DNA from: a virus | Taxonomy: Duplodnaviria; Caudoviricetes | Virus record (IMG/VR): IMGVR_UViG_3300032431_000082 | Coordinates: 1-62,178 of that record | Strand: one strand, 5' to 3' | DNA length: 62,178 bases | Part shown: in pieces, positions 30,698-53,263 of the stretch | How positions within the stretch are numbered: the first letter of the stretch is position 1 | How the letters are laid out: the number at the start of each line of letters is the position of its first letter | Notes under the pieces: model-generated | What the model was told of the DNA's origin: nothing | Seen by the model: only the letters and a program-made list of their open reading frames with translations | Databases searched by the model: none | Translations under genes and position numbers: made by a program

Positions 30698-33600
30698 ATG
30701 GGTGGTAGTGGGTGGGATGAGGGGTACATGCAGAGATACCCTACGCAGCAGTATGGGCATGGGGTACGTAATGATATTAGTAATACAGGGATGCGGCCTA
30801 TTAGTAGTAGGGGAGGTAGTAGTAAGTTAGTAAGAGGTGTCATTACCAATATAGCAGATGCGGATACGTTCACCGTAAAGATAGACGGTGATAGGAAGAT
30901 TATAAGGTTAGAGGGTGTAGATGCGCCAGAGTTATCGCACAAGTCCCAGGTATGGGATGCGTTAAACCCATGGAGTAGGTACAGTAATAGTAATGGGTAC
31001 AACCCTCTATCAGCAGTAGGTAAAGCATTCAATCAACCATTTGGGTGGGAAGGTACAGAACGTGTCAAAGAGTTAGTAGGTGATGGTACTGTATCTGTAT
31101 CATTTAAGGAGAAGGATAAGTTTGGTAGGTACGTAGGAGACATCATTACGGGGGAGGGTAAGTCTGTAGCTCAGACCCTTATAAAAGAAGGGTATGCACA
31201 CCCATACCAACCAGGCACTAGGTTCTATAGTAGCGATGTCTTCACGCCTGAACTACGGAAGGAGTGGTTAAAGACGGTAGAGCAAGGTAAGGGATTATAC
31301 AGTGACCCCTCTTACATAATGCCAGTTGAGTATAAGCATCCAACAATAGGTACTATAGTATCTATGCTCATACCACTACAAGAGAGTACTGCATCTAAAA
31401 CTAATAGGGCATTAATAGAGCGTCAGGTAGTAGAAGACAGAGCCAAGGCATTAGGTATACCGCAAGGATTTGCATCACTAGCAAGCAAAGATCAGGGGTA
31501 TTTACTCCCTGCATCTATGGGTGGTTCGTACTTCTATGCCCGTGGTCAATACAATGCCCTAATGAGGCAAGCAGGGCTAACTGAGAACATAATAACTAAT
31601 GATGATGCGTCAGTAGCCACGTCAATGTACCAGGTGGGGTATTTAGCGAAGCATGGGCGTAACGCAAACTCATTACCACAGGACGTGGGCAGTACTGTAG
31701 TGGCGGGTGCATTAGTAGGTACATTAATGGGCGGGCTCAGTGGCCGTGTAGGTGGGGCCCTAATAGGCACATTAGCGGGTGGGTTACTAGGTGCAGGTGT
31801 AGGGTTAACGACATCCTATGTGACACAGTACGATAAGGAGTTAACTGGTGGGGGCTTAGGTGCGGCCATCAATGAGTGGGGCGCTAGTAATGATTGGGGT
31901 AGATTATATAAGGATGAGGTAGGGTTCATACCCTCAATAACGGGATTAATAGGTAGGGTATTAGATAGGACGTACCTATATGCCTCACCTAGTGGTGCAC
32001 TGTGGGGTGATAAGGATAATGGGCAGGTAATAGGTAAGGGAGGCTTAAGTTACCCAGGGGAGAGTAAGGGGTTCTTCGAGACGTTCTTGAGTAAGGGGAC
32101 AGAGATAGCGATAGGTGCAGCATCATCTGTGGCTCTGTATTTAGCGATAGGTGAACCTATTAACATCCTCTTAGGGGAGATGATGAAAGGTGAGGTGGAA
32201 TCCCTAATTAATGTGGGTGCCTCCGCTAATACCTTCAGAGGGGGTATGGTACAGGGTATCTTTGCTAGACAGTTAACTACGGGCATGGGTATAGGGGCAA
32301 CCAATGTAACGGAGTATAGGGAGGAGTTACTGCGTGAGATAGGTAGTACCACTAGGGCAGACTATGAGGGGTTAGAGAGGGCCCGGTCTATGGTGGATTA
32401 CTTATCTGTAGAAAGGAAGGCAGTAGTAGGCTCACAGATAATGGTGCAGCATGACCCACGCACTACTAAAGGTAAGGCACTATTAGAATCTGCCATGGCA
32501 GACCTTCAGAGAATGGAGGGGGCGTATGGTATGAAAGGGTTCTATTCACTAGATAGGATGGGTGCGAGTGTGTACCACATGTCTACCTTGACGAGAGAGA
32601 GGTCTGGTACATTGATGGAGAACACGCTCAAGCCATTTATCTTAGAGCACATAGACCCATACACTGAGGGGTCGGAAGGGGCTAGAGAATTGCGTAAGGG
32701 GTTGAGTAATGTAGTCAATGAGATGAAGAGACCAGCCTTCCTTGATGTAGAGCTCAATGATAGTTCTAGTAGAGCACTGGCATTCATTAGGGATGTAGAA
32801 GAGAGGAGTCAGGTACTACTACAAGCTAATCCCCGTATTAGTAATGCGTGGCAGCAAGCGAGGGCGGATGTAGTACTGACGGGTAAGTATGCGAAGGTAG
32901 ATGATGATATAGCCAATGTCACATTCAGGTTAAAGAATGCTGGCAAGGATAGGGCATCACGTGTAGCGTCTGTAATACAGGAGGTATTGGACCTTGTACC
33001 ATTACCTATAACGCAATTCAGGGCAGTGAGTAAGCACTTCGGTGGTGGTGTGGAGAGTTCTAAAGACATCAAGGTACTGGGTGATATATTCTCCTTCGAT
33101 GAGGTAACTAATTCAATAGGGCGCGCACTGCAAGGTACAGGTGGGTTAAGTGAGTACTTAGCAGAGTACAAGGCCTTGAGTAATACCCTCGGCCCTGATC
33201 TGGGTGTATTGAATGCAATAACAGAAGGCCCAGGTAGGATACTCCAGCACATTAAAGAGAGGCGTGAGGTAGTGAAGTCTTTAGAGGCATCCTCAGTAGC
33301 TATATCGAAGATGGAGAGGTCACTGTTTGCTAGCGGTAATATAAGGTGGGGGCATGAGATACCTGCGGATATGCTGCAGAGGGTAGAGGATGAGGTAGTA
33401 CAGGGTATGAAGGCCATGAACCCTGCATTGGATATAGCGAGTACTAAGGTGCAGGCAGAGATATATAGAGCTACGCAGATGAAGTTAGGGCCATTAGTAG
33501 ATCCATTAGTAAGAGAGATAACATTAATAGATGATGTGATGTTAGATGTCCTCAAGATACCAGGGGCGAGGGGTGAGGTAGGTTCTAAGGCGATGTCCAT

Positions 33601-36600
33601 TATAGGGGAGACACTGAGGTCACGGCAGCACGCATCATACATGTCTGGCGTGACTAAGAAGAAGTTAGATAGGGTGCGTGCGGGGTGGGGGAAGGATGCC
33701 ACATCTGGTGTTACTAAAGGTAAGTTAGGTACTGCAGCGATTAGTATCATAGCCCTCAGCCTATTCGCGGAGAAGTTAGTGCGTACGACTGATGGGGTAT
33801 CTATATTCACCCAATTAACTACGGCCCTATCACTGAGGGCTGAGGGTATACAGGTATCTAGTGAATTTAAAGGGGATGCGTTACTGCCAACAGTAGCCGG
33901 TATGCCACTAGATTACCTATTAGCGGCAGGGTTATTCGTGCCAGCACATTACATTGCCTCCGCTAAGCAGGGACAGCGAATACTCACGTACGCCATGAGA
34001 AGGGATACGGTAGCGAAGGCATTGAATATTACAGCCAGTGAGTTATCTGGTGCCATTAGTGGTGCAGTACCACACCCGAAGGTAACATCCTTTAATGGGG
34101 GGATGGTAGGAATAGAACTATTCCCTAATACACCGCGCGTAGTACTGCACATGAGTGGTGTGGAAGATGACTTCATGCGTATGTCGTTCGCAGCCTTAGA
34201 AGGTAATAAGTGGAGGAATACGGCTGCCGCATGGGCACTATCATTAGTAGCGATGACAGTCTTAACAAAGGGCATTGCAGGGGCAATGAATACCTCAAGG
34301 AGTATGACATCATCGGGGACATTAGATAGTACAGTCCTTGGGTCATTAGGGGCAGTAGCTGCCGGCAGTATACTAGGACGCACGATGGGAGGTAAGGGTA
34401 TCGTATTAGGTACGATAGTTGGGGCAGTAGTAGGTGCGGCCATAGGTACCGTGACATCTTCAATGAGAGAAGGTAGAGAGGGTACATTAGACCCTATAGC
34501 ATTGGGATTAGTGGGTGTAGGTGTGGGTAAGGCAGTAGGTGGTAAGGGTAGGAGGGGATTGGCAGGGGCCCTTATAGGAGGTGGGTTGGGATTAGTAGCG
34601 GGTATGTTCACATCATTCCTGAAGGTAGGGAGGGATGATTGGGAGACAGTGAATAAGAAGGAAGGCACTATACTCGCAGACATGACAACGTACGTCAAAA
34701 GGGTGAAGGATAGGGCGAGGGCGGGGGATGCTTCACGCCTTGAGTTAATGGGCGCTTACTATGCGATGGGGTGGATGAAGACCTTACGTGGTAAGGAACA
34801 GGAACCAGGCTATGTAAGAGGAGGTACACAGGTCATAGCGAAGCAGGCCGTACTCCCTAACCTGCAGATGTTCATGGCGGAGAGTATAAAGGGTGCGACC
34901 TATAATGAAGATGGGTCTATGAGGACTATGGGTACATCCTATTACTCTGTAGGTATACAGGGCCCTATTGTAACGGGTATATCTATCCCCATACCATTAC
35001 CATTCAAGGTCACAAGGGATGCTAGGGGGACTGTAGGTTTGGCCCTGAATGAAGACCCTAATGTTGGGACATTTATGGGTGACTTCTCTACGGTACGTAC
35101 AGCAATACTGACGACACTCACTGGATTAGGATTGATAACAGGGACTGCTAACCTAGCACAGGCGGGTATACGGTCTCTGGCAACACGTACCCCATTCATG
35201 AAGAACATGTTAGATGGGGGGTGGGATAAAGGGATACGTGGGGTAGTGACTGCCTTAACGGATACGGCCCTAATACTACCGAGTAGTGCCTTACGCATCA
35301 GTATGTCAATGACTGGTGTAGATTATATGGTTGCTGGTAAGGCATTCATGCCGAAGGTAATGCCTGCGATACAATCCCCATCATCTATAGCGCAGGGGAT
35401 GTTGCAGACACCTACAACAATAGGTACCCGTTCCGCATTAACTGACCCATCATTCTATGGTAGACATATAGGTCGGGCCCTAATATGGGGTGTATTAGGG
35501 GCGGCAGCAGGTAGTGCCCTTGGTGCGGTGATGTCATCTAGTCCTACAGACCCTTACGCATCGCAGGCGGGGTCTACTACCGGTGGTGTAATAGGTGCAG
35601 TAGCAGGGAGTGGCTTGTATATGGCAGCGGCCCTAACTAAGGAGAGCCGCTTAGGGGCTGGCATTATATCCCGTATGGGGAGACCACGCATCCCATTACC
35701 TAATACATTGAAGAAGGTAATAGGTAGGGGGGCGGGTGTGCTAGCGCTTATGGCCACATTGGGGACGCTATTCACATCATCTACATTCGGTATAGCTATA
35801 GGTATGGATAAACCCCCCTCATGGTCTGGGTACCAGGAGAGAGGTAATGCTGCATTCAATGCTGAATCCACACGCAAGTTAGAGGGCGAGTACTTCCCCT
35901 CATGGGTACCTATATTAGGGTACAAGGCACCAACGGATGCGACAGGTGCCATCCCCAACTTAGAGGCAGGGGGGTGGACATATCAGAGGGCTATGACAGT
36001 GGCGATGTATGCAACTGTAAGTACTGCTGCCATGACGATGTACGGTGGCATGGGGAAGAGTGCCGGGGATACAGTAGATGAGTACATGAGATTAGTACGT
36101 AGGAAGAGACCGGCCCCTACAGATAATATAATGGCGCAAGCGAGGGAGAGTATATTGCAGTGGAAGGCATCGCACTTAGAGAAGGATATAGATACAATCT
36201 TGAGGAGGGGTCACGATATAGGTGGGGATGCACTAGCCAGTAACTTACAGGAGTACCATAATGCCTCGAAGGTTCTATACGATAATAAGATACATAAGGC
36301 GGTACAGATAACCCCCAACATAAGCCAGGAAGTTGAGACGGCCCTCGATACAGTAGTCTCGAAAGGGCGCGGTATAGGTGTATCGTTGAAGTTATTACCT
36401 GACCTATTACCTAGGAGAGCATTAAAGGGTGCGACTCTATTAGGGGCAGTAGCATTAGGTGTAGGGTTAGTTACTGCATCTATGGGTAAAGATAGTATGG
36501 ATAGGTTATATGACCACTTAGATGGTGGCAATAGCCTAATGAGATCCATAGGGGATACAGTGCGGTTATTTACGGGCACTGATAGGTCTATTAATGAGGA

Positions 36601-39600
36601 GTCCCTATTAGCGAAGCAGTACGTTAAAGAGGGTGGTGGTATCAATCTCCTAACTAATAGGAAGATGTTGAAGGGTAGCAAAGAGTTAGGGGCTACTGCC
36701 AGTTCACTATGGAAGCAGATGTCAGAGTTAATAGTATTCGATGCCCCCAATGCGTTCGTGGGGGTGCAGGTACTAGGTGGTGTGACATTGAGGAGGGGCG
36801 AGTTTGGGGATAGAGTGACGCCATACTTACAGGTGCAAGGGGCGGGGGCTGACCTATCAACTGCCACGTACTCTATGTCCGCATCATTCCTCTTCAATTC
36901 AATAGGTACTAGTCAGGACTTACACTTCAATATGGTCAATGCCATGAGGGAGTTACAGACATTGACTAAGGAGAATGTACCAATAACTCAGGCCCATTTG
37001 AGGAGGGCATCTATAGGTATACTCTCGTACACTGCCAAGATGCAACCCTTAGCTAAGCCTAGAAAGTATAGTGTCCCTAGTGCGGGTGCCTTATCGGCTG
37101 CTGCTAAGGATCCTTTGATAGCTCTCGCACTATCACATAGGCAAGCGGTCACTAAGCAGATGGCGCATCAGCCCCCTGAGTCATTAATATCGGCCATGTT
37201 GAAGGAGGATATGAATCCAGCCTATAACGGTATGGATAGTAGTCTAATGGGGGCGATACTCACGGGTAGTAAGTTAATAAGTAGTACCTTCGGGAATATG
37301 ATGAGGGAGGTACGCATACATGGTATCAAAGCGTTCAGTGTGAGTAAGAATGGTCTGAGGGATGACACTGTCCCGCTAGCGCAAGGGGAGTGGATTGAGG
37401 ATGAAGTAGCAACTGGTATAAGTGGTAAGACATCCTTAACGGATAGTCCCCTATGGACACCCGCTCGTATGTTACTAGGGGTACTACCTACACCTATAGC
37501 GTATACAGTAGGGCTGACAGCAGTAGGTACATTGGGTATGTTTGCTGCTGCATCAGTAGGTGGGTTCTTCTTGAATAGGGAAGTGAATGCCATAGAGGAA
37601 GCATTAGATAAACATTACTCTAGGGATTGGTTCTTACGTAGGAAGGTGGGTGAGTACGAGATATACCCACATAGGGTGGCGAGAGTAGTATCCCCTGCCG
37701 GTACACAATTGACCCCCCATAACCTATATACGATAAGTGAGGGTAAGCATGGGGCGATGTACTCAATAAACCCACACCTTACGGATAATGTCACTACTAG
37801 GGGTGTGGCACAGAGTGCTGTGATATTACCACCTGCTAAGGTACACCAGATTGTAGAGATAGCGCAAGACGCCATCAATAGTTCCTTGAAGACTAATGGT
37901 GTCCTATTTGGTGATTACATGAGGACACAACCGTACCTACAGCAAGTTACTAATGCCGTGACTAATGTACACGGTAAGCCTATGCGGGTCAGTACATTAG
38001 TAGATGAGATATCATCGCCAGTATTGGATGTAGTTGATAGGTACTTCACTGCCTTAGACAATACATCTCTAGTTAGTAAGGTATTAGTTGGTAAGGATGT
38101 AGTAGAGTATAGGGTACCATTCCTATCGATATTCACTAATGCCCCTATAGAGCAGATAGTAGCGAACCCTAAGTCATGGGGAAGTGTTTATGGGGAGGGG
38201 TTCCAGGCATCTATAGCGAATAGGTTTGCGGATGGTATGCAGCCATACAATACAGTAGTAACACCCACGGGGGTAGAGTTATTAGACCCTGTGGGCACCT
38301 ATAAGGATGAGATAAAGAAGGTAATAAGGGAGGTAGTGGAGAGCGAGTTACACCAGTCAGGCTCCCTATTGAAGTTGAATAAGGGGGCGGTGAAGACTGA
38401 TGAGGATGGGATACTCCACTTAGTGCAGAGGGCATTGGATAAGCTAAGAGATAAGGGCGGGCCCCTAGGGAAGATGAGGCATGAATGGGCAGGTATGGCG
38501 ACACCCTTGCCCTTAGATGTAGCGGATAGGTTTGAGGAACTATTGGGTGAGAGTATAGATATGGGTCATAATGCCACGCCCCACGCTACCACACAACCAG
38601 GTAGGAGGATGGGGCCGGGTGTATCATCAACACCCCGTGGTATAGGTGGCGGTATGTCTGATGCAGAGTGGAGAGCTAGGAGGAGTAAGCCTACCAATTG
38701 GGGGAAGGTACAGAAAGGTGCAGGGGTTCTGACAGAGACACTATTCTCAGTGTTCAGTCTATTCGAGGCCACTGATATATGGGGGGCATTCGGTAGGGCG
38801 GCAGAAGCTTATGCACCCGACTCCACTTATACAACAGGGGAGCAGAAGGAGTTAGCACAAGAGGCTGGGTATGTAGGGGCTATGAGCTTACTATCCGCCG
38901 GTGTGATGGCTGGCGTAATGTTTGTAGGCGGTAAGTTGGTAGCCGGTATAGGGGTTATGGTTGGATTAGCGGGGGCATTAATTACAGGAGGTGTAGGGTT
39001 AACCTTCGGTAGTATTGCCTCTTTAGTGGGTCTAGGATTATTAGCTATAGGTGCGATAGGGACAGCCACGTACGGTCTAGTTAACTTACTAGCACCGCAG
39101 GGTATAAAAGATTCAGTCAATGGGTGGGTTAGTAATACAGGGTCTGCAATAGGTAAAGGATTAGGGGGTGCCGGCACTGCGATAACTACAGGTGTGACAG
39201 CGACTGCTAAGGGGGTATCTAAGGTATTTGATTGGTCTGTAAATACATTAGCCAATACTGTAGACACAGTAGGTAAGAAGACAGGTGCCACAGGTGTAGC
39301 TATGTTAGGTGGTGCGATAGGCGGTATTGCATTAGGGGGTGCTATAGCCAGCCTATCGTATGTGGCGGGTAGTGGGGCAGTAATGGCTGCTGGTGCGGGT
39401 ATAGCGGGTGTATTAGGATTAGGGGCCGGTGCTGCTGCGATAGCGGGTGGGGCAGTTATAGCGGGAGGTGTAGCTTTAACTAGTGCCTTAGTAATGGGGT
39501 TATGGGGGACGCTAGACCCGAAGGGGATGCAGAGAGTATGGAGTAAGATTACATCCACCCTATCGGGGGCTACTAAAGATGTGCCTATGATAGGGGAGGG

Positions 39601-40327
39601 ATTCCTTGCTACTAAGAGGGGTACGTGGTTGCAGGGGTATACCAACCCTATGGGTTCAGATAGTCCATTCTTTGTAGGTACAGCGCAGCAAGCGATAGAG
39701 TGGGAGTTCCAGAAGACTATAGAGCTCAATATGGATTACACGGGGGATAGGGTAGCATCATCTATCGTAGACCCATCCATATATGGGTACAGCCCTACAG
39801 CCCCCACCAATAGTGCACTGAGACCTGACTCTGTAGTAGATAATATGATCTCCTCTGAGATTAAGTTACGTGGTCAGTTACATAATCAGACCATCATAGG
39901 GCAGTACATATGGAGGTCTATACTATCATCTGCCAGTAATAAGGAGGTCATCCTCAAGGAGGAGAGGAGGCACATACAAGCCTCATATGATAGGGTGGTT
40001 GCTATTATGGCCCCCAGTGCAGTGGCTGGGACTACCCTATCAATTAGGGAGCAAGTAGATATGAAGGCAGTCGCTACTCTTACTGCATCCATTAAGAAGG
40101 CAGTATCTGATGGTACACCGAAGGGCGTGACCTTAAAGGTGAACTTACCAGCAGCGCACCCTAGTAGTATACAGGCCCCCACGCCTGCCCCTCTGATGGT
40201 AGATAAGGCCCGGTCTACTACCAATCAGAAGGTTGTGGTAAAGAAGACTTACAGCCCATTGAATGTGTACTTCATGGATGTTGTAATACAAGCCGTCGCA
40301 TACCCCGGGCATAGCGCCTTAACGTAG
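30698..40327 (+). CDS. Giant tape-measure-like / ejection protein with N-terminal thermonuclease (SNase) domain
   Basis: IADADTF...IRLEGVDAPEL...DKFGRY.G...LIKEGYA matches staphylococcal nuclease motifs. The remainder is helical with many Gly/Ala-rich hydrophobic glycine-zipper segments. Confidence 0.7.
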   Translation: MGGSGWDEGYMQRYPTQQYGHGVRNDISNTGMRPISSRGGSSKLVRGVITNIADADTFTVKIDGDRKIIRLEGVDAPELSHKSQVWDALNPWSRYSNSNGYNPLSAVGKAFNQPFGWEGTERVKELVGDGTVSVSFKEKDKFGRYVGDIITGEGKSVAQTLIKEGYAHPYQPGTRFYSSDVFTPELRKEWLKTVEQGKGLYSDPSYIMPVEYKHPTIGTIVSMLIPLQESTASKTNRALIERQVVEDRAKALGIPQGFASLASKDQGYLLPASMGGSYFYARGQYNALMRQAGLTENIITNDDASVATSMYQVGYLAKHGRNANSLPQDVGSTVVAGALVGTLMGGLSGRVGGALIGTLAGGLLGAGVGLTTSYVTQYDKELTGGGLGAAINEWGASNDWGRLYKDEVGFIPSITGLIGRVLDRTYLYASPSGALWGDKDNGQVIGKGGLSYPGESKGFFETFLSKGTEIAIGAASSVALYLAIGEPINILLGEMMKGEVESLINVGASANTFRGGMVQGIFARQLTTGMGIGATNVTEYREELLREIGSTTRADYEGLERARSMVDYLSVERKAVVGSQIMVQHDPRTTKGKALLESAMADLQRMEGAYGMKGFYSLDRMGASVYHMSTLTRERSGTLMENTLKPFILEHIDPYTEGSEGARELRKGLSNVVNEMKRPAFLDVELNDSSSRALAFIRDVEERSQVLLQANPRISNAWQQARADVVLTGKYAKVDDDIANVTFRLKNAGKDRASRVASVIQEVLDLVPLPITQFRAVSKHFGGGVESSKDIKVLGDIFSFDEVTNSIGRALQGTGGLSEYLAEYKALSNTLGPDLGVLNAITEGPGRILQHIKERREVVKSLEASSVAISKMERSLFASGNIRWGHEIPADMLQRVEDEVVQGMKAMNPALDIASTKVQAEIYRATQMKLGPLVDPLVREITLIDDVMLDVLKIPGARGEVGSKAMSIIGETLRSRQHASYMSGVTKKKLDRVRAGWGKDATSGVTKGKLGTAAISIIALSLFAEKLVRTTDGVSIFTQLTTALSLRAEGIQVSSEFKGDALLPTVAGMPLDYLLAAGLFVPAHYIASAKQGQRILTYAMRRDTVAKALNITASELSGAISGAVPHPKVTSFNGGMVGIELFPNTPRVVLHMSGVEDDFMRMSFAALEGNKWRNTAAAWALSLVAMTVLTKGIAGAMNTSRSMTSSGTLDSTVLGSLGAVAAGSILGRTMGGKGIVLGTIVGAVVGAAIGTVTSSMREGREGTLDPIALGLVGVGVGKAVGGKGRRGLAGALIGGGLGLVAGMFTSFLKVGRDDWETVNKKEGTILADMTTYVKRVKDRARAGDASRLELMGAYYAMGWMKTLRGKEQEPGYVRGGTQVIAKQAVLPNLQMFMAESIKGATYNEDGSMRTMGTSYYSVGIQGPIVTGISIPIPLPFKVTRDARGTVGLALNEDPNVGTFMGDFSTVRTAILTTLTGLGLITGTANLAQAGIRSLATRTPFMKNMLDGGWDKGIRGVVTALTDTALILPSSALRISMSMTGVDYMVAGKAFMPKVMPAIQSPSSIAQGMLQTPTTIGTRSALTDPSFYGRHIGRALIWGVLGAAAGSALGAVMSSSPTDPYASQAGSTTGGVIGAVAGSGLYMAAALTKESRLGAGIISRMGRPRIPLPNTLKKVIGRGAGVLALMATLGTLFTSSTFGIAIGMDKPPSWSGYQERGNAAFNAESTRKLEGEYFPSWVPILGYKAPTDATGAIPNLEAGGWTYQRAMTVAMYATVSTAAMTMYGGMGKSAGDTVDEYMRLVRRKRPAPTDNIMAQARESILQWKASHLEKDIDTILRRGHDIGGDALASNLQEYHNASKVLYDNKIHKAVQITPNISQEVETALDTVVSKGRGIGVSLKLLPDLLPRRALKGATLLGAVALGVGLVTASMGKDSMDRLYDHLDGGNSLMRSIGDTVRLFTGTDRSINEESLLAKQYVKEGGGINLLTNRKMLKGSKELGATASSLWKQMSELIVFDAPNAFVGVQVLGGVTLRRGEFGDRVTPYLQVQGAGADLSTATYSMSASFLFNSIGTSQDLHFNMVNAMRELQTLTKENVPITQAHLRRASIGILSYTAKMQPLAKPRKYSVPSAGALSAAAKDPLIALALSHRQAVTKQMAHQPPESLISAMLKEDMNPAYNGMDSSLMGAILTGSKLISSTFGNMMREVRIHGIKAFSVSKNGLRDDTVPLAQGEWIEDEVATGISGKTSLTDSPLWTPARMLLGVLPTPIAYTVGLTAVGTLGMFAAASVGGFFLNREVNAIEEALDKHYSRDWFLRRKVGEYEIYPHRVARVVSPAGTQLTPHNLYTISEGKHGAMYSINPHLTDNVTTRGVAQSAVILPPAKVHQIVEIAQDAINSSLKTNGVLFGDYMRTQPYLQQVTNAVTNVHGKPMRVSTLVDEISSPVLDVVDRYFTALDNTSLVSKVLVGKDVVEYRVPFLSIFTNAPIEQIVANPKSWGSVYGEGFQASIANRFADGMQPYNTVVTPTGVELLDPVGTYKDEIKKVIREVVESELHQSGSLLKLNKGAVKTDEDGILHLVQRALDKLRDKGGPLGKMRHEWAGMATPLPLDVADRFEELLGESIDMGHNATPHATTQPGRRMGPGVSSTPRGIGGGMSDAEWRARRSKPTNWGKVQKGAGVLTETLFSVFSLFEATDIWGAFGRAAEAYAPDSTYTTGEQKELAQEAGYVGAMSLLSAGVMAGVMFVGGKLVAGIGVMVGLAGALITGGVGLTFGSIASLVGLGLLAIGAIGTATYGLVNLLAPQGIKDSVNGWVSNTGSAIGKGLGGAGTAITTGVTATAKGVSKVFDWSVNTLANTVDTVGKKTGATGVAMLGGAIGGIALGGAIASLSYVAGSGAVMAAGAGIAGVLGLGAGAAAIAGGAVIAGGVALTSALVMGLWGTLDPKGMQRVWSKITSTLSGATKDVPMIGEGFLATKRGTWLQGYTNPMGSDSPFFVGTAQQAIEWEFQKTIELNMDYTGDRVASSIVDPSIYGYSPTAPTNSALRPDSVVDNMISSEIKLRGQLHNQTIIGQYIWRSILSSASNKEVILKEERRHIQASYDRVVAIMAPSAVAGTTLSIREQVDMKAVATLTASIKKAVSDGTPKGVTLKVNLPAAHPSSIQAPTPAPLMVDKARSTTNQKVVVKKTYSPLNVYFMDVVIQAVAYPGHSALT

Positions 40328-43013: not shown

Positions 43014-43087
43014 TGGAGCTAGCAGGACTCGAACCTGCGACCTTGACGATAGGAATGTCCTGTTCTATCCATCTGAACTATAGCTCC
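43014..43087 (-). tRNA. trnR: tRNA-Arg (anticodon CCT)
   Basis: Acceptor stem GGAGCTA/TAGCTCC, D-arm GTTC-AGATGGATA-GAAC with A20, anticodon loop TTCCTAT, T-arm GCAGG-TTCGAGT-CCTGC. CCA is not encoded. The anticodon stem has two mismatches. Confidence 0.88.
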
Positions 43088-45290: not shown

Positions 45291-45683
45291 CTAGGGGCTG
45301 TGAGCTATAAAGGGTGGGGGTATGGGCATAGCCGCTATGAGTTCCCTAAGCCTGCGCCTATTATTACATCCGTACCTCTCAAGGTGTAAGGTAGGGAATA
45401 GCTGATCCCATAAGCTAATGTAAGCACCTCTCAATAACTTCCCCCCTTTCTTAGCTATTGAGAGTGCTGTGGGGTCATAGAGTACATTAGTATCCCACCC
45501 CATAACCTTATGTAATCTGTCTACGTACTCTTCTACAGTGGCCTTATCTTGTGACCATAGGGTGTAGTGCATTGAGGACACTACTACATCATCTACAGTC
45601 TCTACACCAATCAGTATTAGGGGGAGAATTATATTGTCATCGTAGGCCCCTTCTAACCACACAGCATACTTCAAGCTCCCCAT
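45291..45683 (-). CDS. Hypothetical protein
   Basis: 130-aa ORF overlapping the primase end. Confidence 0.6.
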   Translation of the reverse strand: MGSLKYAVWLEGAYDDNIILPLILIGVETVDDVVVSSMHYTLWSQDKATVEEYVDRLHKVMGWDTNVLYDPTALSIAKKGGKLLRGAYISLWDQLFPTLHLERYGCNNRRRLRELIAAMPIPPPFIAHSP

Positions 45684-46978
45684 ATAGCTAGTACATACTC
45701 TAAAGGGGACATAGATGAGGGGACATATGATTGCAGTAGTTCTTTACCGCGACCTGTAGCCGTCACTAACTGTGTGAGCTTCTTATGCCACGATAGGTCG
45801 CGCCCATACTTACCAATGAGGTACTCTACCAAGGATATCTTTCTACTCTCAACCATAGCAGTGAATGACCTACCATTACAGCCGGTGCCTAATGTGTACT
45901 CATTGATGTCTTTGGAGGTGAATAGTTTGTTAGTTACCATGTGCGAACCTTCTGTAGGTAATATACATATACTTATCATTGCATGTGGCAGTAACGTCTG
46001 TAGCTCAATCAATTGCGGTATGACTACCCTCCACGACTTATACTCACCCGCGTAATAGGGGTGATCATCTGCATGTACATCAGAGTCATATATACATATG
46101 ATCTCCTCGAACCCTTCTAGCTTATGGTAATGGTGCAGCAATCCCTGCAAGCCTAATGTACCTAGGGCTGGCAATGATAGATTATGTAGGGATAGGGTGT
46201 CAGGGTACCCTTCAGTTAGGTACACGTAAGGATTACCCCTATCTTTATAGGAGGTAATGTGCTCTTCCCCGACTAGGTAATGGGATATAGTTGTAAGCCC
46301 TGAGCCTTTAGTGTGCTTCCACTTAGGGAACATAGGCTCCCCATCCTCACGTAAAGGTATGTTGTAGATATACCGGCCTGTTAGATGTACCACCTTCCCC
46401 CTAATATCCTTAATAGGGAAGATGATACGTTTACCCATATAGTCCCTACCTTCGGAGTCTTCAGTAGAACGTAACCCTATGTTCTGTAAGCTAGTAATAT
46501 CTAAGCCATAACTGATTAATGTCTGTGCGTGGGGGGCGTAACCTATACCAGCGGACGCAATAGTCTTATCAGTCCACCCTCTAGACTTCAGGTAAGCCAT
46601 AGCATGTACCCCCTCACCACTATGTAGTAATGATTGGTATATAGATAGTACTTCCTCCAATATAGATATCTTCACATCCATATACTCATTGGTAGTCGAT
46701 AAGCCATACTCTTGTTCCAGTGCATCCATTGCCTGATAGAAACTACCGCTACCCCACATATTATGTACCCACCGGTAATGGTGTACGACATCTACCACCC
46801 TCCCATGACTGGGGCACTTAGTGGAGTAACACCACCCTAGCCCTTTACTATTCAAAGAGAAGCTAGGGCGGGCACAGTAGGGGCAATTATTAGAGCCTAC
46901 CTTTAATGTAGGGATTAGATCTGTGAGTTTACTGTGCGCGTGTATCTCACTGAGGCGAGCGAGTGTATTGGGATCCAT
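45671..46978 (-). CDS. dnaG: DNA primase (zinc finger plus Toprim)
   Basis: CPYC..PSF...CY..C zinc finger, YLKSRG, IGYAP, RIIFPI.D..G....GR, YLTEGYPD and YDSD. Confidence 0.9.
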   Translation of the reverse strand: MDPNTLARLSEIHAHSKLTDLIPTLKVGSNNCPYCARPSFSLNSKGLGWCYSTKCPSHGRVVDVVHHYRWVHNMWGSGSFYQAMDALEQEYGLSTTNEYMDVKISILEEVLSIYQSLLHSGEGVHAMAYLKSRGWTDKTIASAGIGYAPHAQTLISYGLDITSLQNIGLRSTEDSEGRDYMGKRIIFPIKDIRGKVVHLTGRYIYNIPLREDGEPMFPKWKHTKGSGLTTISHYLVGEEHITSYKDRGNPYVYLTEGYPDTLSLHNLSLPALGTLGLQGLLHHYHKLEGFEEIICIYDSDVHADDHPYYAGEYKSWRVVIPQLIELQTLLPHAMISICILPTEGSHMVTNKLFTSKDINEYTLGTGCNGRSFTAMVESRKISLVEYLIGKYGRDLSWHKKLTQLVTATGRGKELLQSYVPSSMSPLEYVLAIWGA

Positions 46979-47089
46979 GGTATTTATTGTAGGGGGCGGC
47001 GTACTAAATCTCTATAATTAACGGTCATACTGCATCATAGATGCTGGACATATCCGATGTACTAGAATCACTGCCATAATGTAATCATA

Positions 47090-48589
47090 GTGCGAGAGGT
47101 GTATATGCAAGAAGGTAATAATTATGAATGGGCCTTATCTAACTTAGTTACGACTATAGGTGCGGATAGGGCGGTGGTATTCCAATTCACTGAGGATTAT
47201 ACTGGTGGTACATTTATAGCATCATCGGGTGCTCCTATACCAGGTAGTACCCCCCCTACTATAAATTGGCAGCAGTGTACTGTAATGGATTCGCTATTAG
47301 ACGAAGAGTACTGGTCATTAGAGGATAAGGATACCATCACTTCCACTACTCATAGGGCACTCGTGGATAGTCTGTGCGTACGGTCATACCTATACTCCAC
47401 AATAAAGGTATTGGGGATTGTGTGGGGCGTGGTAGGGGTACATAACATCAATAGCCCGCGCAAGTGGAGCCCCGATGATAAGTCATTACTACAGACTACC
47501 GCCCTACACATAAGTGGGAGCCTCTTGAAGGAAGCTCTTGTAGAGAATATATCATTACACTCTAAGATAAAGAAGAGTAAGATGTTACTGCAGAAGGTCA
47601 TCGATAGTACGCCCGTATACCTAGGAATAAAAGATGATACAGGTAAGTTTATATTAGTGAATAAGGCACTATCTGAGGCTGCTGGGTATACTAGCCCCAA
47701 GGATATGGTGGGTAAGGTAGAGTGGGGTGATTACTTCCCCGCAACCTCTATAGAAGAGGAGGGCAGTGTACTAGCGACTGGGGAGACAGTGATATCCTTA
47801 TCCAGTAAAGGTAAGGATAGATACTTTACTGTGCATAGATTATTCGTACCTGGTGATAATGTTTTAGAGCCTATGGTTGTATCCACATTAATAGATATAA
47901 CAGAGTTAGCAGTCATCACTAAGAGGTTAGAAGATTTCACGCGCATAGCTAGTCATGACCTGCAAGAACCATTACGCACTATCACATCCTTCTTAGGATT
48001 GTTGAAGAAGAGACATGGGAGTGAGGTATCATTAGCAGCATTACATTACGTGGATACAGCAATAGATGCGTCTAAGAGGATGGGTGAATTACTAACTGAC
48101 CTATTAGAGTACTCACGCTTGGGGTCTAAGACTAAGTCTATGAAGTGGGCACCCCTATCAGATGTATTAATGAAGGCACTAAGGAATCTATCCGGTAAGT
48201 TAGTGTTTGATGTATGCCCCACTATAATGTACGACCCCAATGGATTCCCAGAAGTGTGGGGTGATGAGGTGCAGTTAATAGCATGCCTACAGAACGTACT
48301 ATCTAATGCCATTAAGTTTGGTGAGGGGGCGCCTATAGAGATAACGCATACTGTAACAGACACACATTGGGTTATCTCTGTAGCAGATCATGGTGTGGGT
48401 GTACCGGAGGGTATGGAGCTAGCCATATTCAGACCATTTAAGAGGGCACAGAGTAAGTTCGAGGGGACTGGTATGGGCTTAGCGATAGTAGAGAAGGTAG
48501 CTCACATACATCAAGGTAGTGCGTGGGTCACTGCTACACCTGGTGGTGGTGCTACTGTACACGTGAGTATCAAACGACATGAACACTAA
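47090..48589 (+). CDS. GAF-PAS sensor histidine kinase (Cph1/COG4251-like transmitter)
   Basis: GAF (ADRAVVFQF...WGVVGVH...PRKW...LL), PAS (VIDSTP...KD..G....N...DITE), H-box ASHDLQEPLRTI, N-box QNVLSNAIKF, G1 DHGVG, F-box IFRPF and G2 GTGMGLAIV. An alternative start is ATG 47105. Confidence 0.92.
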   Translation: MREVYMQEGNNYEWALSNLVTTIGADRAVVFQFTEDYTGGTFIASSGAPIPGSTPPTINWQQCTVMDSLLDEEYWSLEDKDTITSTTHRALVDSLCVRSYLYSTIKVLGIVWGVVGVHNINSPRKWSPDDKSLLQTTALHISGSLLKEALVENISLHSKIKKSKMLLQKVIDSTPVYLGIKDDTGKFILVNKALSEAAGYTSPKDMVGKVEWGDYFPATSIEEEGSVLATGETVISLSSKGKDRYFTVHRLFVPGDNVLEPMVVSTLIDITELAVITKRLEDFTRIASHDLQEPLRTITSFLGLLKKRHGSEVSLAALHYVDTAIDASKRMGELLTDLLEYSRLGSKTKSMKWAPLSDVLMKALRNLSGKLVFDVCPTIMYDPNGFPEVWGDEVQLIACLQNVLSNAIKFGEGAPIEITHTVTDTHWVISVADHGVGVPEGMELAIFRPFKRAQSKFEGTGMGLAIVEKVAHIHQGSAWVTATPGGGATVHVSIKRHEH

Positions 48590-48980
48590 AAGGATATTAA
48601 TCATAGAAGATAGCTTAACTGATGCACACCTATTCGAGGAAGCTATAAAGGATTGTGGGGTAGATATAGGGGTGCAGATAGTTACTGATTGGGCAGGGGC
48701 TAGGTTAGCACTACAACATAGTGACACGCCCTTGAGACTAGTGTTACTAGACTTAAACTTAACTGGCGTAGGGGGGTGTGAAGTAATAACCCTCATAAAG
48801 AAGACAGAGTCCCAGGTACCTATAGTAGTATTCTCTACCTCCTCTAACCCCAGTGATATAGATAGGTGCTATAAAGTAGGTGCTAATGCTTACATTGTTA
48901 AGCCATATGATGTAGATCAATTGTTTGAGACCATGTGCTCCACATTTAAGTGGTGGTTAGATATCAATAAGATAGCGTAG
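48579..48980 (+). CDS. Single-domain response regulator (Rcp1-like)
   Basis: ILIIEDS..D, LLDLNL, PIVVFSTS....DI..CY..GANAYIVKP. Confidence 0.92.
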   Translation: MNTKRILIIEDSLTDAHLFEEAIKDCGVDIGVQIVTDWAGARLALQHSDTPLRLVLLDLNLTGVGGCEVITLIKKTESQVPIVVFSTSSNPSDIDRCYKVGANAYIVKPYDVDQLFETMCSTFKWWLDINKIA

Positions 48981-48993
48981 GTAGAGGGTTCCG

Positions 48994-49521
48994 ATGAGTA
49001 ATTTAAGTATATTGTTGATTGAGGATAGTAAGAGTGATGTGATGTTGGTACAAGAAGCCTTACTACATAGACAAGACCACTACACATTAAATGTAGCTAG
49101 TACACTGACAGGAGGAATGAAGCTATTAGAGGCCCATAAATATGATGTAATACTACTAGACTTACTACTGCCAGACTCTAACCCCACATCAATACTAGCG
49201 CCCTTGATTAGTGTAATGGCCAATCACCCTGGTGAATACCCTACAGTAGTGGTATTCACTGCCATTGCGGATAGGGATATAGAGTTGGAAGCCTTACGCA
49301 TGGGAGCGCAGGGGTACTTCTATAAAGGTAGGTTAGAGCCTGACAGTGAGCAGTTATGGATTACATTGAATAACGCATCTGTCAGGGGGTCATATATACG
49401 CTCACTAATATCTGTAGGCTTACCTAAGTCTGGTATATCTATGAAGGTCGTCACTGACTCCCAAAGAGTATTCGATAATATAATAGATAATGCACAGGCG
49501 GGGAGTGGGTTAAATGGATAA
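48994..49521 (+). CDS. Response regulator receiver protein with a short C-terminal extension
   Basis: ILLIEDS..D, YDVILLDLLLPDS, VVFTA and ALRMGAQGYFYKG. No DNA-binding domain is visible. Confidence 0.88.
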   Translation: MSNLSILLIEDSKSDVMLVQEALLHRQDHYTLNVASTLTGGMKLLEAHKYDVILLDLLLPDSNPTSILAPLISVMANHPGEYPTVVVFTAIADRDIELEALRMGAQGYFYKGRLEPDSEQLWITLNNASVRGSYIRSLISVGLPKSGISMKVVTDSQRVFDNIIDNAQAGSGLNG

Positions 49522-50077
49522 TACCAACTTAAAAGATGCTTTAGTAGCTCTGAAACCCTTCCTATCAGAGGTGGTGAATAACTCCATAGCCATATCTAGT
49601 ATAGATAACCGCCTCTCCCTACTAATAGATGAGACACGTAAACTATCGCGCATCATATATGAAGGTAATGGGCAGCCCGCCATTATGACACGTATAACAT
49701 CCATTGAGGTCAGTGTACAACAGTTAAAGGATACTGTAGCAGATGTTAGAAGTAACAGCAAGGATATAGATACTACCCTCTACGAACACATACAGAGTGC
49801 TAATAAGGCATCCTTTGAGTTGGGTTTAGTGATAGACGATATACAACTCAATGAAAGTAATAGGAAGGACGCATTGAATGCTAAGGAGCTAGCCAACTAT
49901 GGATGGAAGCTCAATGTCATACAGGCTATCATCCTATTACTAATCACAAGTATTACAGGATTCATAGGCAGTGAGTTCTATAATTACTGGAACCATCAGA
50001 AGACTATATTTAAGAACCCACCCTCTACAGATAGGCCATTAATGCCCCCTACTGGGGGGGGTGCTCCTTCTAAATAA
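49514..50077 (+). CDS. Coiled-coil protein with a C-terminal transmembrane helix (possibly holin/XhlA-like)
   Basis: Coiled coil with GNGQPAIMTRITSIE, and hydrophobic VIQAIILLLITSITGFIG. Overlaps the upstream regulator. Confidence 0.55.
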   Translation: MDNTNLKDALVALKPFLSEVVNNSIAISSIDNRLSLLIDETRKLSRIIYEGNGQPAIMTRITSIEVSVQQLKDTVADVRSNSKDIDTTLYEHIQSANKASFELGLVIDDIQLNESNRKDALNAKELANYGWKLNVIQAIILLLITSITGFIGSEFYNYWNHQKTIFKNPPSTDRPLMPPTGGGAPSK

Positions 50078-50132: not shown

Positions 50133-51344
50133 TCATTGGATATATGGGAGGTACTTCTTATCACAGTAACAGGCCTGTATGAATGAGTGCCTGTCACCTA
50201 CTATACGTAAGTTGTTGGGTGTAGTAGCGCGACTGATGGCCATGAATGCCATGCCATGACACCTGCCCATGAAGCGTAGATTACCATCGGCATTAGGGTC
50301 ATCTAATACCACCTGTAAGTGGTCTATGGATAGGCTTTGTGCCTTGTGCGTGGTGAGGGCGTACGCGAGGATGATGGGCATGAAGGTAATACGACCCCTC
50401 TTAGTGGATGTCTTGTGACTAATGGCAGTCATAGCCACATCCACTCGCCCCCCTCTCAATAAGTCTACAGTCACTACATTACTACCCATACTGACGACAT
50501 AACCTTGATCACCATTGGCATAGCCCATATCCCACTGGTTACTACGTAAGATGACTAATGCCCCTACCTTCAACTCTAATGGGTCTGGTATATTCTTCCA
50601 CTCAGGTAATGGGTCACCCTCCTTTATAGGGTAGTAATACATAGACTCCCCCTGTAACTGACTGAGGGAGTACTCATTATGTACTTGCGCCCCATAGTTC
50701 AAAGAGTATAGGGTAGTGCCCTCAAAGGACATATCAATATCACTATGGAAGCCTAGGTCATTGAAGTAGTGCACAGCGGTGCGTGCATCCCCCACACGTA
50801 AGTGGCGTAAGGCATTAATGAACTCCTTATCAGTGGTGCGGTGTACATGAGTTAGGCTATAGGTATGTACATACTTCCATAAAGGGCTCTCAAAGGCAGG
50901 CTCTTCCTTCACTGGTGGTAGTTGTCCAAAGTCACCTATCAATAGGAAGTTCACACATGCGCCAGTACTCTCATACAGACGCTCATTATTTAACATCATG
51001 ATCTGTAGCTGTGCAGCAGATAACATACTCGTCTCATCTACCCCTATAGTCTTCCCCACATGTGTACGCAGGGCTTCATATATGCGACCACTGTCATGCT
51101 TCTTACGCATGTCTGCACTATCGAAGTACCCTAGTAAGGAGTTGATGGTAGTGCCCCCTATATTGATGGCAGAGATACCAGTAGTGGATGTCTTAATTAA
51201 TGGATACCCCATATCATGTAATGTCTTCACTACAAAAGACTTACCACACCCAGGGCCCCCTTCTAAATGATTGTACCTATGCTCCCCTTGTTTGATAGCT
51301 GTAATAGCCAGTTGCTGGTCTGGGGATGGGGTCGGATTAAACAT
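50133..51344 (-). CDS. PIF1/RecD-like SF1B helicase
   Basis: GGPGCGKS, TTGISA..IGG.TI.S, DE.SM, GDFGQLPPV, NGDQG, LAYALT.HKAQ and A.SRA. Confidence 0.9.
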   Translation of the reverse strand: MFNPTPSPDQQLAITAIKQGEHRYNHLEGGPGCGKSFVVKTLHDMGYPLIKTSTTGISAINIGGTTINSLLGYFDSADMRKKHDSGRIYEALRTHVGKTIGVDETSMLSAAQLQIMMLNNERLYESTGACVNFLLIGDFGQLPPVKEEPAFESPLWKYVHTYSLTHVHRTTDKEFINALRHLRVGDARTAVHYFNDLGFHSDIDMSFEGTTLYSLNYGAQVHNEYSLSQLQGESMYYYPIKEGDPLPEWKNIPDPLELKVGALVILRSNQWDMGYANGDQGYVVSMGSNVVTVDLLRGGRVDVAMTAISHKTSTKRGRITFMPIILAYALTTHKAQSLSIDHLQVVLDDPNADGNLRFMGRCHGMAFMAISRATTPNNLRIVGDRHSFIQACYCDKKYLPYIQ

Positions 51345-51574: not shown

Positions 51575-51628
51575 ACTGGATGGCCAGGAATTACCGGGTT
51601 AAATGTATCTGTGTGTCTTGTAGTCACG

Positions 51629-53263
51629 TTAAGTTCTATCGATGAATTCATCCCGTGAGAATGTTGGCATGGGCGGTAGCTTACAACCCCATGAAGGCCA
51701 CTGGTAACTAATCTCACATGCCCATGCTTGCGCCAGTAATCGGTATGCCATGTGCCCACCTGGTTTAGATCTGAGGTCAGCTACGTACCCCATGAAGGTA
51801 TAGGGCGTGCCATAGAATATGTAAGGTGTGACATGACCATGTGGAAGTAGGTTCTTAATGGTTCTACTCTCTAACGTATCACGCTCACGGTACTCTTTAG
51901 AGGACTGGTATACCACAGATGATAGTCTCAAATATTGCATCCACTGTCTTATCTTTTCATACCCCACAGACATATACGCTAACATCTCCTGCCCTATAGG
52001 TGTACCTATTAAGTATGGGTGTATTGTATATGACTCACCCTGTAAGTCTTGACTGATATTCATCTCACTATGTAGTAATGGTATGAACGAGGGTAGTGTT
52101 CTATGTCTCTGTAGGTCTTTAATAGTACCTATATCTGCTACACCATGAACCACTACATTACTACCAGATCCCAGGGGACCTATCTCATTCTTCCAGTTAT
52201 AGGCAGCCAGTAGTCCCTGTAACTCATCTCCACAGCGTAGGGGGCCAGCTTTACGGGATGGGTGCTTTAGTAAGTGTAGGTGTATTAGTAATGGGTCGGC
52301 CCCATTAAAGTAATTAACCCCACCAGGTGTGGTGACATAGAAGTTCTCAATTATAGGTAATGTCACATCCCAGGGCTCTATAGAGTATGGTCTGCACCCG
52401 TAGACAGCGTTAACCATACCCAGTACATCAGCGGACTCCCCACTCCCCAAGCGTATTAAGATATCGCCCTCTGGTACATACCCATCCCAACCACGTTTCA
52501 TCAAAGTGGTGAGGGCATTAGATAGGTCAGCCTGCATATTATTAGATAAGGTACTTATCCACTTACTCCACTCCCTCCCACTCTGTATAGCGCCGACAGA
52601 CGTACTCACGCCCATTGGTATGAGGTACCTTACGCAATCTAAGGTACGCGGTACCAGCGCGGTATGTTTACTATCAACCTCAAACCTATTAGCTAAGTAG
52701 TCTTTCACTAAAGGGTAGAAGTACTCGTACCCATCTAACCAGTAATCTAATATCTCGTAGTAGCAAGCACTGTCGGTAGTGCTAGTGCCTACTGCTGTAG
52801 GACACAGTCCAAGACTAGTATCACTCATAGGGTAGGGGGCATATTGCCGCCCCCCTTTAATGTAGTTTTGGTACCGTGTACTCCTCTCTTGTCCATCTTG
52901 TAGGTGATGATTGTAGAAGAACTGCATGGCGGTAATACAATCTATACCCTCCATAGCCACTGATAGGTGGCCTAACCCTCTCACAGAGTCATGATTATAG
53001 TCACTGATAACTCTATCCAGTACCTCCTCAGCGGATATACTTTTATCCTTACGGTACGCTAGGAGTTCAGGTATAGATCTACTACTCCTACTATATGCGG
53101 CTAAGGTAGAGGCATTGACGGCAGGGGTGCGTGTCCCTGGGTTACATAGCAATGAGTATACAATCTGTCCCTCAGTGGTAGTGACGGATGCTATACCCAG
53201 CTCAGGGTCGTAATGGTTATGGTTCACTGTGCGGTACCTGTAGTAAATAGCAAAGGGCTGCAT
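51629..53263 (-). CDS. thyX: Flavin-dependent thymidylate synthase, tandem-domain type
   Basis: YSRS, HDSV...H, QERSTRY, D..RYLIP; second half has KDLQRHR, LR..PGGH..YR..A. Confidence 0.85.
   Translation of the reverse strand: MQPFAIYYRYRTVNHNHYDPELGIASVTTTEGQIVYSLLCNPGTRTPAVNASTLAAYSRSSRSIPELLAYRKDKSISAEEVLDRVISDYNHDSVRGLGHLSVAMEGIDCITAMQFFYNHHLQDGQERSTRYQNYIKGGRQYAPYPMSDTSLGLCPTAVGTSTTDSACYYEILDYWLDGYEYFYPLVKDYLANRFEVDSKHTALVPRTLDCVRYLIPMGVSTSVGAIQSGREWSKWISTLSNNMQADLSNALTTLMKRGWDGYVPEGDILIRLGSGESADVLGMVNAVYGCRPYSIEPWDVTLPIIENFYVTTPGGVNYFNGADPLLIHLHLLKHPSRKAGPLRCGDELQGLLAAYNWKNEIGPLGSGSNVVVHGVADIGTIKDLQRHRTLPSFIPLLHSEMNISQDLQGESYTIHPYLIGTPIGQEMLAYMSVGYEKIRQWMQYLRLSSVVYQSSKEYRERDTLESRTIKNLLPHGHVTPYIFYGTPYTFMGYVADLRSKPGGHMAYRLLAQAWACEISYQWPSWGCKLPPMPTFSRDEFIDRT

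Follow-up and report, generated by a model that had tools for sequence, protein, structure and literature searches.

A four-gene cassette shared by two phages

Can a lytic phage lineage keep a sensory pathway of its own, running from sensor to receiver? Phages are mostly thought to read their hosts through host regulators or small peptide signals, and the question is raised by four genes in IMG/VR virus record IMGVR_UViG_3300032431_000082, a stretch of 62,178 bases (hereafter the window) that is rated 37% complete and belongs to a large virus of filamentous cyanobacteria. The genes form a cassette of four head-to-tail open reading frames (ORFs) on the plus strand, inside a replication block on the minus strand, and encode a sensor histidine kinase, two stand-alone receivers (receiver 1 and receiver 2) and a predicted membrane protein (protein 4). 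On sequence evidence we assign a probability of about 0.7 to the reading that the cassette holds a functional, virus-owned two-component module, through which the virus probably senses something inside the infected cell. The cassette and its flanks comprise the following features, with positions given in the window and protein lengths in amino acids (aa).

45671-46978, minus strand: primase, flanking the cassette
46979-47104, no strand: intergenic region from which the primase and kinase genes diverge, presumed to be the promoter region of the operon
47105-48589, plus strand, ORF open from GTG 47090: sensor histidine kinase with GAF, PAS, HisKA and HATPase_c domains, 494 aa, predicted soluble
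47135-47521, plus strand: GAF domain, a cyanobacteriochrome-like sequence without the chromophore cysteine
47603-47914, plus strand: PAS-like domain (Pfam PAS_4), with long invariant runs in 10 kinases
47954-47956, plus strand: codon of the phospho-accepting histidine in the HisKA domain of the kinase
48579-48980, plus strand: receiver 1, stand-alone and of the Rcp1/RcpB type, 133 aa, with phospho-acceptor D58 at 48750-48752
48994-49521, plus strand: receiver 2, 175 aa, with D56 at 49159-49161 and helices at residues 119-141 and 150-170
49514-50077, plus strand: protein 4, 187 aa, with Y-E-G-N-G-Q-P at 49658-49678 and a membrane helix at residues ~131-152 (49904-49969)
50133-51344, minus strand: Dda/PIF1-like helicase, flanking the cassette

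An earlier annotation made without database searches (the sequence-only reading) had proposed a four-gene operon on the opposite strand within the replication module, and this layout is borne out, with four co-directional ORFs lying between the minus-strand primase and helicase. The kinase and receiver 1 genes overlap by 11 nucleotides (nt), the two receiver genes are separated by a 13-nt gap, and the receiver 2 and protein 4 genes overlap by 8 nt. The kinase likely starts at ATG 47105, giving the 494-aa product, because GAGAGG lies 7 nt before this codon, the 494-aa form is the one present in the protein collection searched and the start is conserved in relatives. The intergenic region also contains TATAAT (47013-47018) and TAGAAT (47063-47068), and a promoter and terminator scan yielded no signal above shuffled expectation.

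The only close match to the cassette among 50,697 phage records was Microcoleus phage My-WqHQDG (OR578706.1), described in the accessible part of its preprint as a lytic jumbo myovirus with a predicted Microcoleus host (bioRxiv 10.1101/2023.04.12.536658). The orthologous four genes (WOL31350-WOL31353) occupy the same position there, between a primase and a PIF1-type helicase, and their products are 61% (kinase), 52% (receiver 1), ~62% (receiver 2) and 48% (protein 4) identical to those of the window, while the flanks align collinearly for ~17 kb (40-75% amino-acid identity) and the genes for receiver 2 and protein 4 again overlap by 8 nt. Ratios of nonsynonymous to synonymous substitution (dN/dS) between the two phages were 0.145 for the kinase, 0.364 for receiver 1, 0.073 for receiver 2 and 0.254 for protein 4, values that are rough as dS is saturated, and the cassette genes are under purifying selection. 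GenBank lists three of the My-WqHQDG products as hypothetical proteins and the remaining one as a "response regulator receiver domain protein", and the terms kinase, response regulator and two-component are absent from the accessible main text of the preprint (bioRxiv 10.1101/2023.04.12.536658). Linkage in further relatives is indicated indirectly by contigs of the same size that carry homologues of the kinase and receiver 2 (244819, 15255 and 12833 bases) or of receiver 2 and protein 4 (37579, 6102 and 1560 bases).

A separate observation concerns the annotation of My-WqHQDG, in which the kinase start (WOL31350, L001:7833-9470) is probably placed ~55 codons too far upstream; no relative shares the extra stretch, which runs into the probable 5' end of the primase gene.

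An intact kinase core behind a degenerate GAF domain

Pfam searches of the kinase identified a GAF domain (residues 16-144, 5.9e-9), a PAS_4 domain (172-224, 3.7e-4), a HisKA domain (280-346, 3.3e-10) and a HATPase_c domain (391-496, 2.8e-23). The phospho-accepting His and the N, G1 (DxGxG), F and G2 boxes expected of a HisKA-type kinase are all present, and the catalytic residues, numbered in the 494-aa form, are invariant in 10 of 10 aligned kinases (H284; N397/N401; D428-x-G430-x-G432; F442; G454-T-G-M-G-L459). The core carries an ASHDLQEPLR H-box and matches bacteriophytochrome kinases among others, and NCBIfam matches all fell far under their curated cut-offs, so that no equivalog could be named. 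No membrane-grade hydrophobic stretch was detected by a hydrophobicity scan of the kinase or of either receiver. The protein collection contained 11 kinase relatives, of full or part length, on contigs of 1.6-266 kb and with 53-68% identity, after which the next match falls to 35%.

Light had been listed among the possible cues for this kinase, and the sensor half argues against it. All eight solved-structure matches of the GAF domain at an expectation value (E) of 1 or less (range 0.0033-0.62) are GAF domains of bilin-binding or cyanobacteriochrome-derived proteins. When aligned with five solved cyanobacteriochrome GAF domains, the phage domain has a Thr opposite the Cys of their C-H/C-Y motif, which carries the chromophore, and a Cys occurs in this column in none of the 10 kinases. 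Pfam recorded no PAS_2 or PHY match in the kinase. Judged by these features the kinase is not a photoreceptor of the phytochrome or cyanobacteriochrome kind, and bilin-based light sensing is unlikely because the chromophore Cys is missing from the GAF domain. The PAS part is the best conserved segment of the sensor half across the 10-kinase alignment.

Two further observations relate to the kinase. A metagenome contig of 12,833 bases encodes a 337-aa relative (P0012) with an intact core and a different, shorter N-terminus in place of the GAF-PAS region; P0143, a relative of receiver 2, is encoded on an equally long contig. At the DNA level, the source run also includes a contig of 2312 bases and higher depth that agrees with the H-box region (47954-47993) apart from 6 differences; this contig presumably represents a cellular kinase gene with the same conserved motif.

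Two stand-alone receivers without an output domain

Receiver 1 and receiver 2 match the Pfam family Response_reg at 3.1e-17 and 1.4e-10, respectively, and the acidic pair, the phospho-acceptor Asp, the Thr and the Lys do not vary among the four receivers that the two phages encode (E10, D11, D58, T87 and K108 in receiver 1; E10, D11, D56, T89 and K111 in receiver 2). For receiver 2 these residues are invariant in 17 of 17 sequences. The proposal that all kinase boxes and both phospho-acceptor aspartates are intact therefore stands.

The four best solved-structure relatives of receiver 1 are RcpB (2.5e-20), Rcp1 (two entries, 2.8e-15) and RcpA (1.5e-14), and with a gene that overlaps the kinase gene it has the features of an Rcp1-type stand-alone receiver. 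A comparable gene row exists in the cyanobacterium Aulosira, where a GAF/PAS kinase with the same H-box and a 37% identical core is followed by an overlapping gene for a 148-aa receiver (36% identical to receiver 1) and by a hybrid kinase. Given the Rcp matches, the H-box and the Aulosira row, the sequence-only reading was fair in calling the transmitter and first receiver Cph1/Rcp1-type.

Receiver 2 has 16 relatives in the protein collection at 56-93% identity, and its tail is conserved in all 17 sequences. Its structural model (predicted local distance difference test, pLDDT, 79) shows a normal receiver with an extended fifth helix (119-141) and, at lower confidence, an extra helix (150-170). 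The model superposes best on 6oap (a dual sensor kinase, matched in sequence at 2.2e-10), DgcR and NtrC1; in those proteins the extended fifth helix leads to an effector domain, whereas receiver 2 ends after one more helix. The tail matched no family, and an Atlas search with it gave nothing above 0.79. Some receiver 2 relatives are labelled "DNA-binding NarL/FixJ family response regulator", a label that we reject because PF00072 alone is on record for them.

Pfam recorded neither an Hpt domain nor a DNA-binding or enzymatic output domain in any cassette protein, which agrees with the earlier statement that a DNA-binding output is lacking. The window contains exactly two receiver domains and one HATPase_c domain, and My-WqHQDG likewise has two receiver domains. 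The cassette had been called a complete phosphorelay. With no receiver fused to the kinase and no Hpt family recorded by Pfam, a multi-step phosphorelay is not what the domains describe; on its domain content the cassette is a branched two-component system with two receivers and not a His-Asp-His-Asp phosphorelay, because an Hpt domain is missing, so the earlier wording is wrong.

The cassette is an old viral property

In a tree of kinase cores built from 12 phage-type and 80 cellular rows, none of which were dropped, the 12 phage-type kinases separate from the cellular ones as a single clade with a Shimodaira-Hasegawa-like approximate likelihood ratio test (SH-aLRT) support of 100 and a stem of 1.93 changes per site. 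This clade neighbours one lone Planctomycetota row (SH-aLRT 85) and does not nest among the five cyanobacterial rows; the tree assigns the kinase donor to no cellular group. The best cellular matches, from 185,579 species genomes and from metagenomes, are 27-42% identical in their best segment, most of them over the core only. The metagenome scan concerns the best 80 of 592 matches, which are dominated by the common ASHDLQE pattern and do not include the close relatives. Scans of IMG/VR with the kinase, with protein 4 and with alignments A4 and A5 returned no close relatives, and a scan with the receiver 2 alignment returned only eight generic receivers at 29-38% identity.

These distances bear on whether the kinase and receivers act mainly on host signalling proteins, which would be compatible with a virus-owned module as its output route. 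The receivers could then serve as a sink or decoy for host Cph1/Rcp-type or hybrid kinases, or the phage kinase could phosphorylate or dephosphorylate host Rcp/CheY-like receivers and so rewire, for example, motility or the light/redox acclimation of the filament. Receiver 1 is of the cyanobacterial Rcp type, at 36% identity to an Aulosira receiver whose own gene neighbours are a GAF/PAS kinase on one side and, on the other, a hybrid kinase that contains two receiver domains. The cassette is without an output domain. Single-domain receivers have motility roles in cyanobacteria, in which connection they are mentioned in the accessible part of PMC9410186. On the other hand, a very long branch separates the phage kinases from every cellular kinase, which suggests co-evolution with their own receivers over host mimicry, and the kinase and both receivers are kept together. 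We regard action mainly on the host network, and with it the earlier idea that host phosphorelays are drained or fed, as possible, although not likely.

The assembly itself was also examined. The cassette runs on the strand opposite to its flanks and has a slightly lower G+C content (GC), as might be seen in a chimeric contig or a recently captured host fragment. The primase-kinase junction is bridged by independent contigs of runs X2 (46965-47405) and X3 (46885-47156) from two studies, the junctions between receiver 1 and receiver 2 and between receiver 2 and protein 4 are each bridged once by contigs of other studies, and the junction of protein 4 with the helicase is bridged only by the probable source run, in addition to synteny. 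Among the differences from a 95-99% identical variant of another study, of which 40 of 110 were listed, synonymous changes make up 12 of the 23 listed for the cassette and 7 of 8 in the helicase.

The GC of the kinase, receiver 1, receiver 2 and protein 4 genes is 0.443, 0.405, 0.413 and 0.406, respectively, against 0.464 ± 0.017 for 35 phage ORFs of at least 200 aa, and their GC at third codon positions (GC3) is 0.39-0.42 against 0.437 ± 0.043 for the phage. The earlier statement that base composition matches the phage thus holds for GC3, which is within one standard deviation, and does not hold for the GC of the three small genes, which is 0.05-0.06 lower; the cassette is slightly AT-richer and not foreign-looking. 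A chimeric or freshly captured origin can be rejected as extremely improbable because of the synteny with My-WqHQDG, the bridging contigs and the distance of all cellular homologues, none of which exceeds ~40% identity. Long residence, as first proposed, is supported by this synteny, by the 1.93 stem of the kinase clade and by dN/dS values of 0.07-0.36, and from these comparisons we take the cassette to be an old viral property rather than a fresh host fragment.

Protein 4 belongs to a wider family of viral tail-anchored proteins

Protein 4 contains a single hydrophobic stretch (Kyte-Doolittle 19-residue maximum 2.18, residues 133-151), its model is all-helical at low confidence (pLDDT 54), and its first 55 residues, ending in Y-E-G-N-G-Q-P, are the most conserved. 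It is predicted to be a tail-anchored helical membrane protein with a C-terminal anchor. No Pfam or PHROG family, and no holin or lysis family, matched it. An Atlas search with language-model features suggested DUF7201 (PF23831) at 0.90, a candidate that was set aside as PF23831 was absent from the record at E ≤ 10; neither protein 4 nor eight family relatives had a Pfam match to DUF7201.

Six relatives of protein 4 were present in the protein collection, and a profile search of 1.84 billion representatives recovered 100 proteins at E ≤ 0.001, 4 of them at E ≤ 1e-10 and 96 weaker. Most of the 15 weak matches that were inspected combine a helix, a (D/E)-G-N-G-Q-P-like motif, a coiled coil and a C-terminal anchor. 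Scanning IMG/VR revealed protein-4-like genes at 53 loci (L177-L229; for example L177:5989-6369), of which 51 ORFs were delimited. They encode tail-anchored helical proteins of 110-170 aa with the motif L-S-K-(L/I)-V-R-D-G-N-G-Q-P-S, for which no Pfam family was found. Cyanobacterial genomes gave 0 of 4 matches in one set and 14 of 301 at E ≤ 1e-3 in a further set; the two of the 14 loci that were inspected both encode short coiled-coil membrane proteins without the motif and hence look like matches of composition.

Neighbours at the G-N-G-Q-P loci are strongly conserved, with clusters present in 27-38 loci. Among 10 representative neighbours, those named by PHROGs are QueC-like, amidotransferase-like, thymidylate synthase and clamp loader, and five were unmatched. 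Using profiles that do detect the genes of the cassette, a receiver or kinase was found within 6 kb at 0 of 53 loci, and PF00072 was found in 0 of the 35 viral records checked, a set from which near-duplicates and two records without an ORF were omitted. The family thus usually resides, without two-component genes, in blocks of nucleotide metabolism and replication, the kind of block that also surrounds protein 4 here.

The sequence-only reading had called protein 4 holin-like and possibly a timer of lysis, in which case a phosphorylated receiver would gate it. In favour of this idea, protein 4 possesses a single membrane helix, the two phages both couple its translation to that of receiver 2, and relatives in its family have weak matches (4 of 19 and 2 of 19, E 7e-5 to 2e-3) to PHROG "hemolysin" families, which are XhlA-like. 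Against this, protein 4 itself matches no holin or lysis family, a 130-residue N-terminal part followed by a C-terminal anchor is an unusual layout for a holin, and the conserved neighbours of its relatives are the nucleotide-metabolism genes named above. An Amidase_2/LD-endopeptidase/M23 cluster is located ~60 kb from the cassette in My-WqHQDG, and neither Phage_lysozyme nor Amidase_2 was found in the window. A holin would be expected to show a family match or to lie in a lysis cassette beside an endolysin, and by these sequence features protein 4 does neither. A role in lysis timing is therefore improbable, and the holin label is unsupported.

One kinase with two receivers also resembles Detocs, a defence system that consists of a kinase, a buffer receiver and a receiver-effector, and the cassette could on this basis be a defence or exclusion module against competing phages with protein 4 as its membrane effector. 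PADLOC, in a version not checked for the presence of Detocs models, returned no match for the kinase or protein 4 and only weak generic receiver matches at E of at least 4.3e-6, and receiver 2 has no effector domain; we consider such a module very improbable.

A model for the module and the evidence that limits it

We infer kinase activity, phosphotransfer partners, cue and output from the sequences. An infecting phage would make a soluble kinase whose PAS domain, degenerate GAF domain or both would read an intracellular cue, probably a small molecule or protein rather than bilin-based light. The kinase would autophosphorylate at the H-box histidine and then hand the phosphoryl group to one or both stand-alone receivers, one of which may serve as a phosphate sink. 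Because neither receiver has a DNA-binding or enzymatic domain, the output would have to be a phosphorylation-dependent protein-protein contact, made either with a viral partner, for which protein 4 is the candidate, or with host partners. Protein 4, co-translated with its neighbour, is a member of a family that normally works without two-component genes and may have been brought under receiver control in this lineage.

How far protein 4 belongs to the pathway deserves caution. The conserved overlap with receiver 2 allows that the lineage may have put protein 4 under receiver control, a link that is positional only, and a complex prediction for receiver 2 with residues 1-130 of protein 4 scored 0.00, which weighs neither way. 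That protein 4 is a direct receiver partner seems to us rather doubtful. An all-viral circuit, in which the kinase would measure the state of the filament (energy, redox or a metabolite) and the receiver with the stalk-like tail would switch the G-N-G-Q-P membrane protein, is unlikely. Were it true, sensor, transmitter and effector would all be virus-encoded, and a membrane event such as exclusion of other phages, tethering of the replication machinery or timed release would be coupled to host state.

Several points weigh against a functional, virus-owned module. The PAS_4 match scores 21.1 bits and is below the curated cut-off of 23.1. The GC of both receivers and protein 4 is lower than the phage mean by the margin already noted, and no RNA run was found that contains the cassette stretch. 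Full genomic context was read for two phages only, and the same-size contigs that extend the linkage to other relatives are indirect matches. Finally, the membership of protein 4 in a signalling pathway is doubtful because its relatives occur without receivers, both in the records checked for PF00072 and within 6 kb of the G-N-G-Q-P loci.

The surrounding genome

The plus strand up to ~42 kb carries structural and packaging genes, including a terminase-like ORF and an ORF of 3209 aa, and from 43 kb a minus-strand block encodes replication and nucleotide-metabolism functions (a PD-(D/E)XK nuclease, the primase, the Dda/PIF1-type helicase and a long ThyX-like protein). The giant 3209-aa ORF on the structural side is located at 30698-40327, and over its last 435 residues it shares 70% identity with the end of a My-WqHQDG gene of 12.5 kb. 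A transfer RNA gene, tRNA-Arg (CCT), occupies 74 bases at 43014-43087; at the syntenic spot in My-WqHQDG (L001:3800-4085) a 286-base "tRNA-Arg" is annotated, an oddity of annotation or else a tRNA gene that is interrupted. The ThyX-like protein (51629-53263, 544 aa) has a partial, weak Thy1 (ThyX) match over residues 58-237 (3.9e-7), falls in phrog_36506 ("thymidylate synthase"), is far longer than the usual ThyX and is 56% identical to its counterpart in My-WqHQDG.

Between the helicase and this gene lies a 36-base stretch (51576-51611) that is single-copy in the window and occurs with different flanks on several contigs, one of which has a depth of ~1700, of the source run and two other runs. 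In the phage variant of run X2, this stretch and its surroundings are swapped for 18 other letters. One possibility is a small intergenic element that is mobile or shared.

Comparison with known signalling systems

The nearest cellular counterparts of the cassette are the cyanobacterial Cph1/Rcp1 and RcpA/RcpB pairs. As in these, the HisKA core carries ASHDLQEPLR, the gene for a stand-alone receiver overlaps the end of the kinase gene and the nearest GAF domains are of the bilin type. Unlike them, the phage kinase has neither a PAS_2/PHY module nor the chromophore Cys, its core identity is only 37%, and the system is virus-encoded, with a second receiver and a membrane protein in addition.

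GenBank already contains the orthologous genes, most of them entered as hypothetical proteins. Our literature searches yielded no account of a lytic cyanophage lineage with a conserved operon of one kinase and two receivers, and no occurrence of phage or viral histidine kinase, or of phage-encoded two-component or response regulator, as phrases. In its accessible part, a survey of jumbo phages (PMC7824862) discusses only a divergent receiver outside two-component systems. If our reading is right, a whole sensor-to-receiver pathway has long been kept by a lineage of lytic phages whose targets are cyanobacteria that form mats and in part produce toxins, and the virus would make its own decision during infection. 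The cassette also offers a tractable case for the role of output-less Rcp-type receivers, and it flags a widespread, unnamed family of viral tail-anchored proteins that is found on 53 IMG/VR contigs and forms ~100 clusters at 50% identity.

That phages carry histidine kinases or response regulators is not new in itself. The accessible parts of the respective papers report phoR, phoB and narL as auxiliary genes borne by soil phages (PMC10987575) and an agr locus on phage phiCDHM1 (PMC3901668). These are host-like single genes or quorum-sensing loci that cluster with bacterial references, feed host regulons and include DNA-binding regulators, whereas the cassette described here joins a kinase of a virus-specific clade to two output-less receivers.

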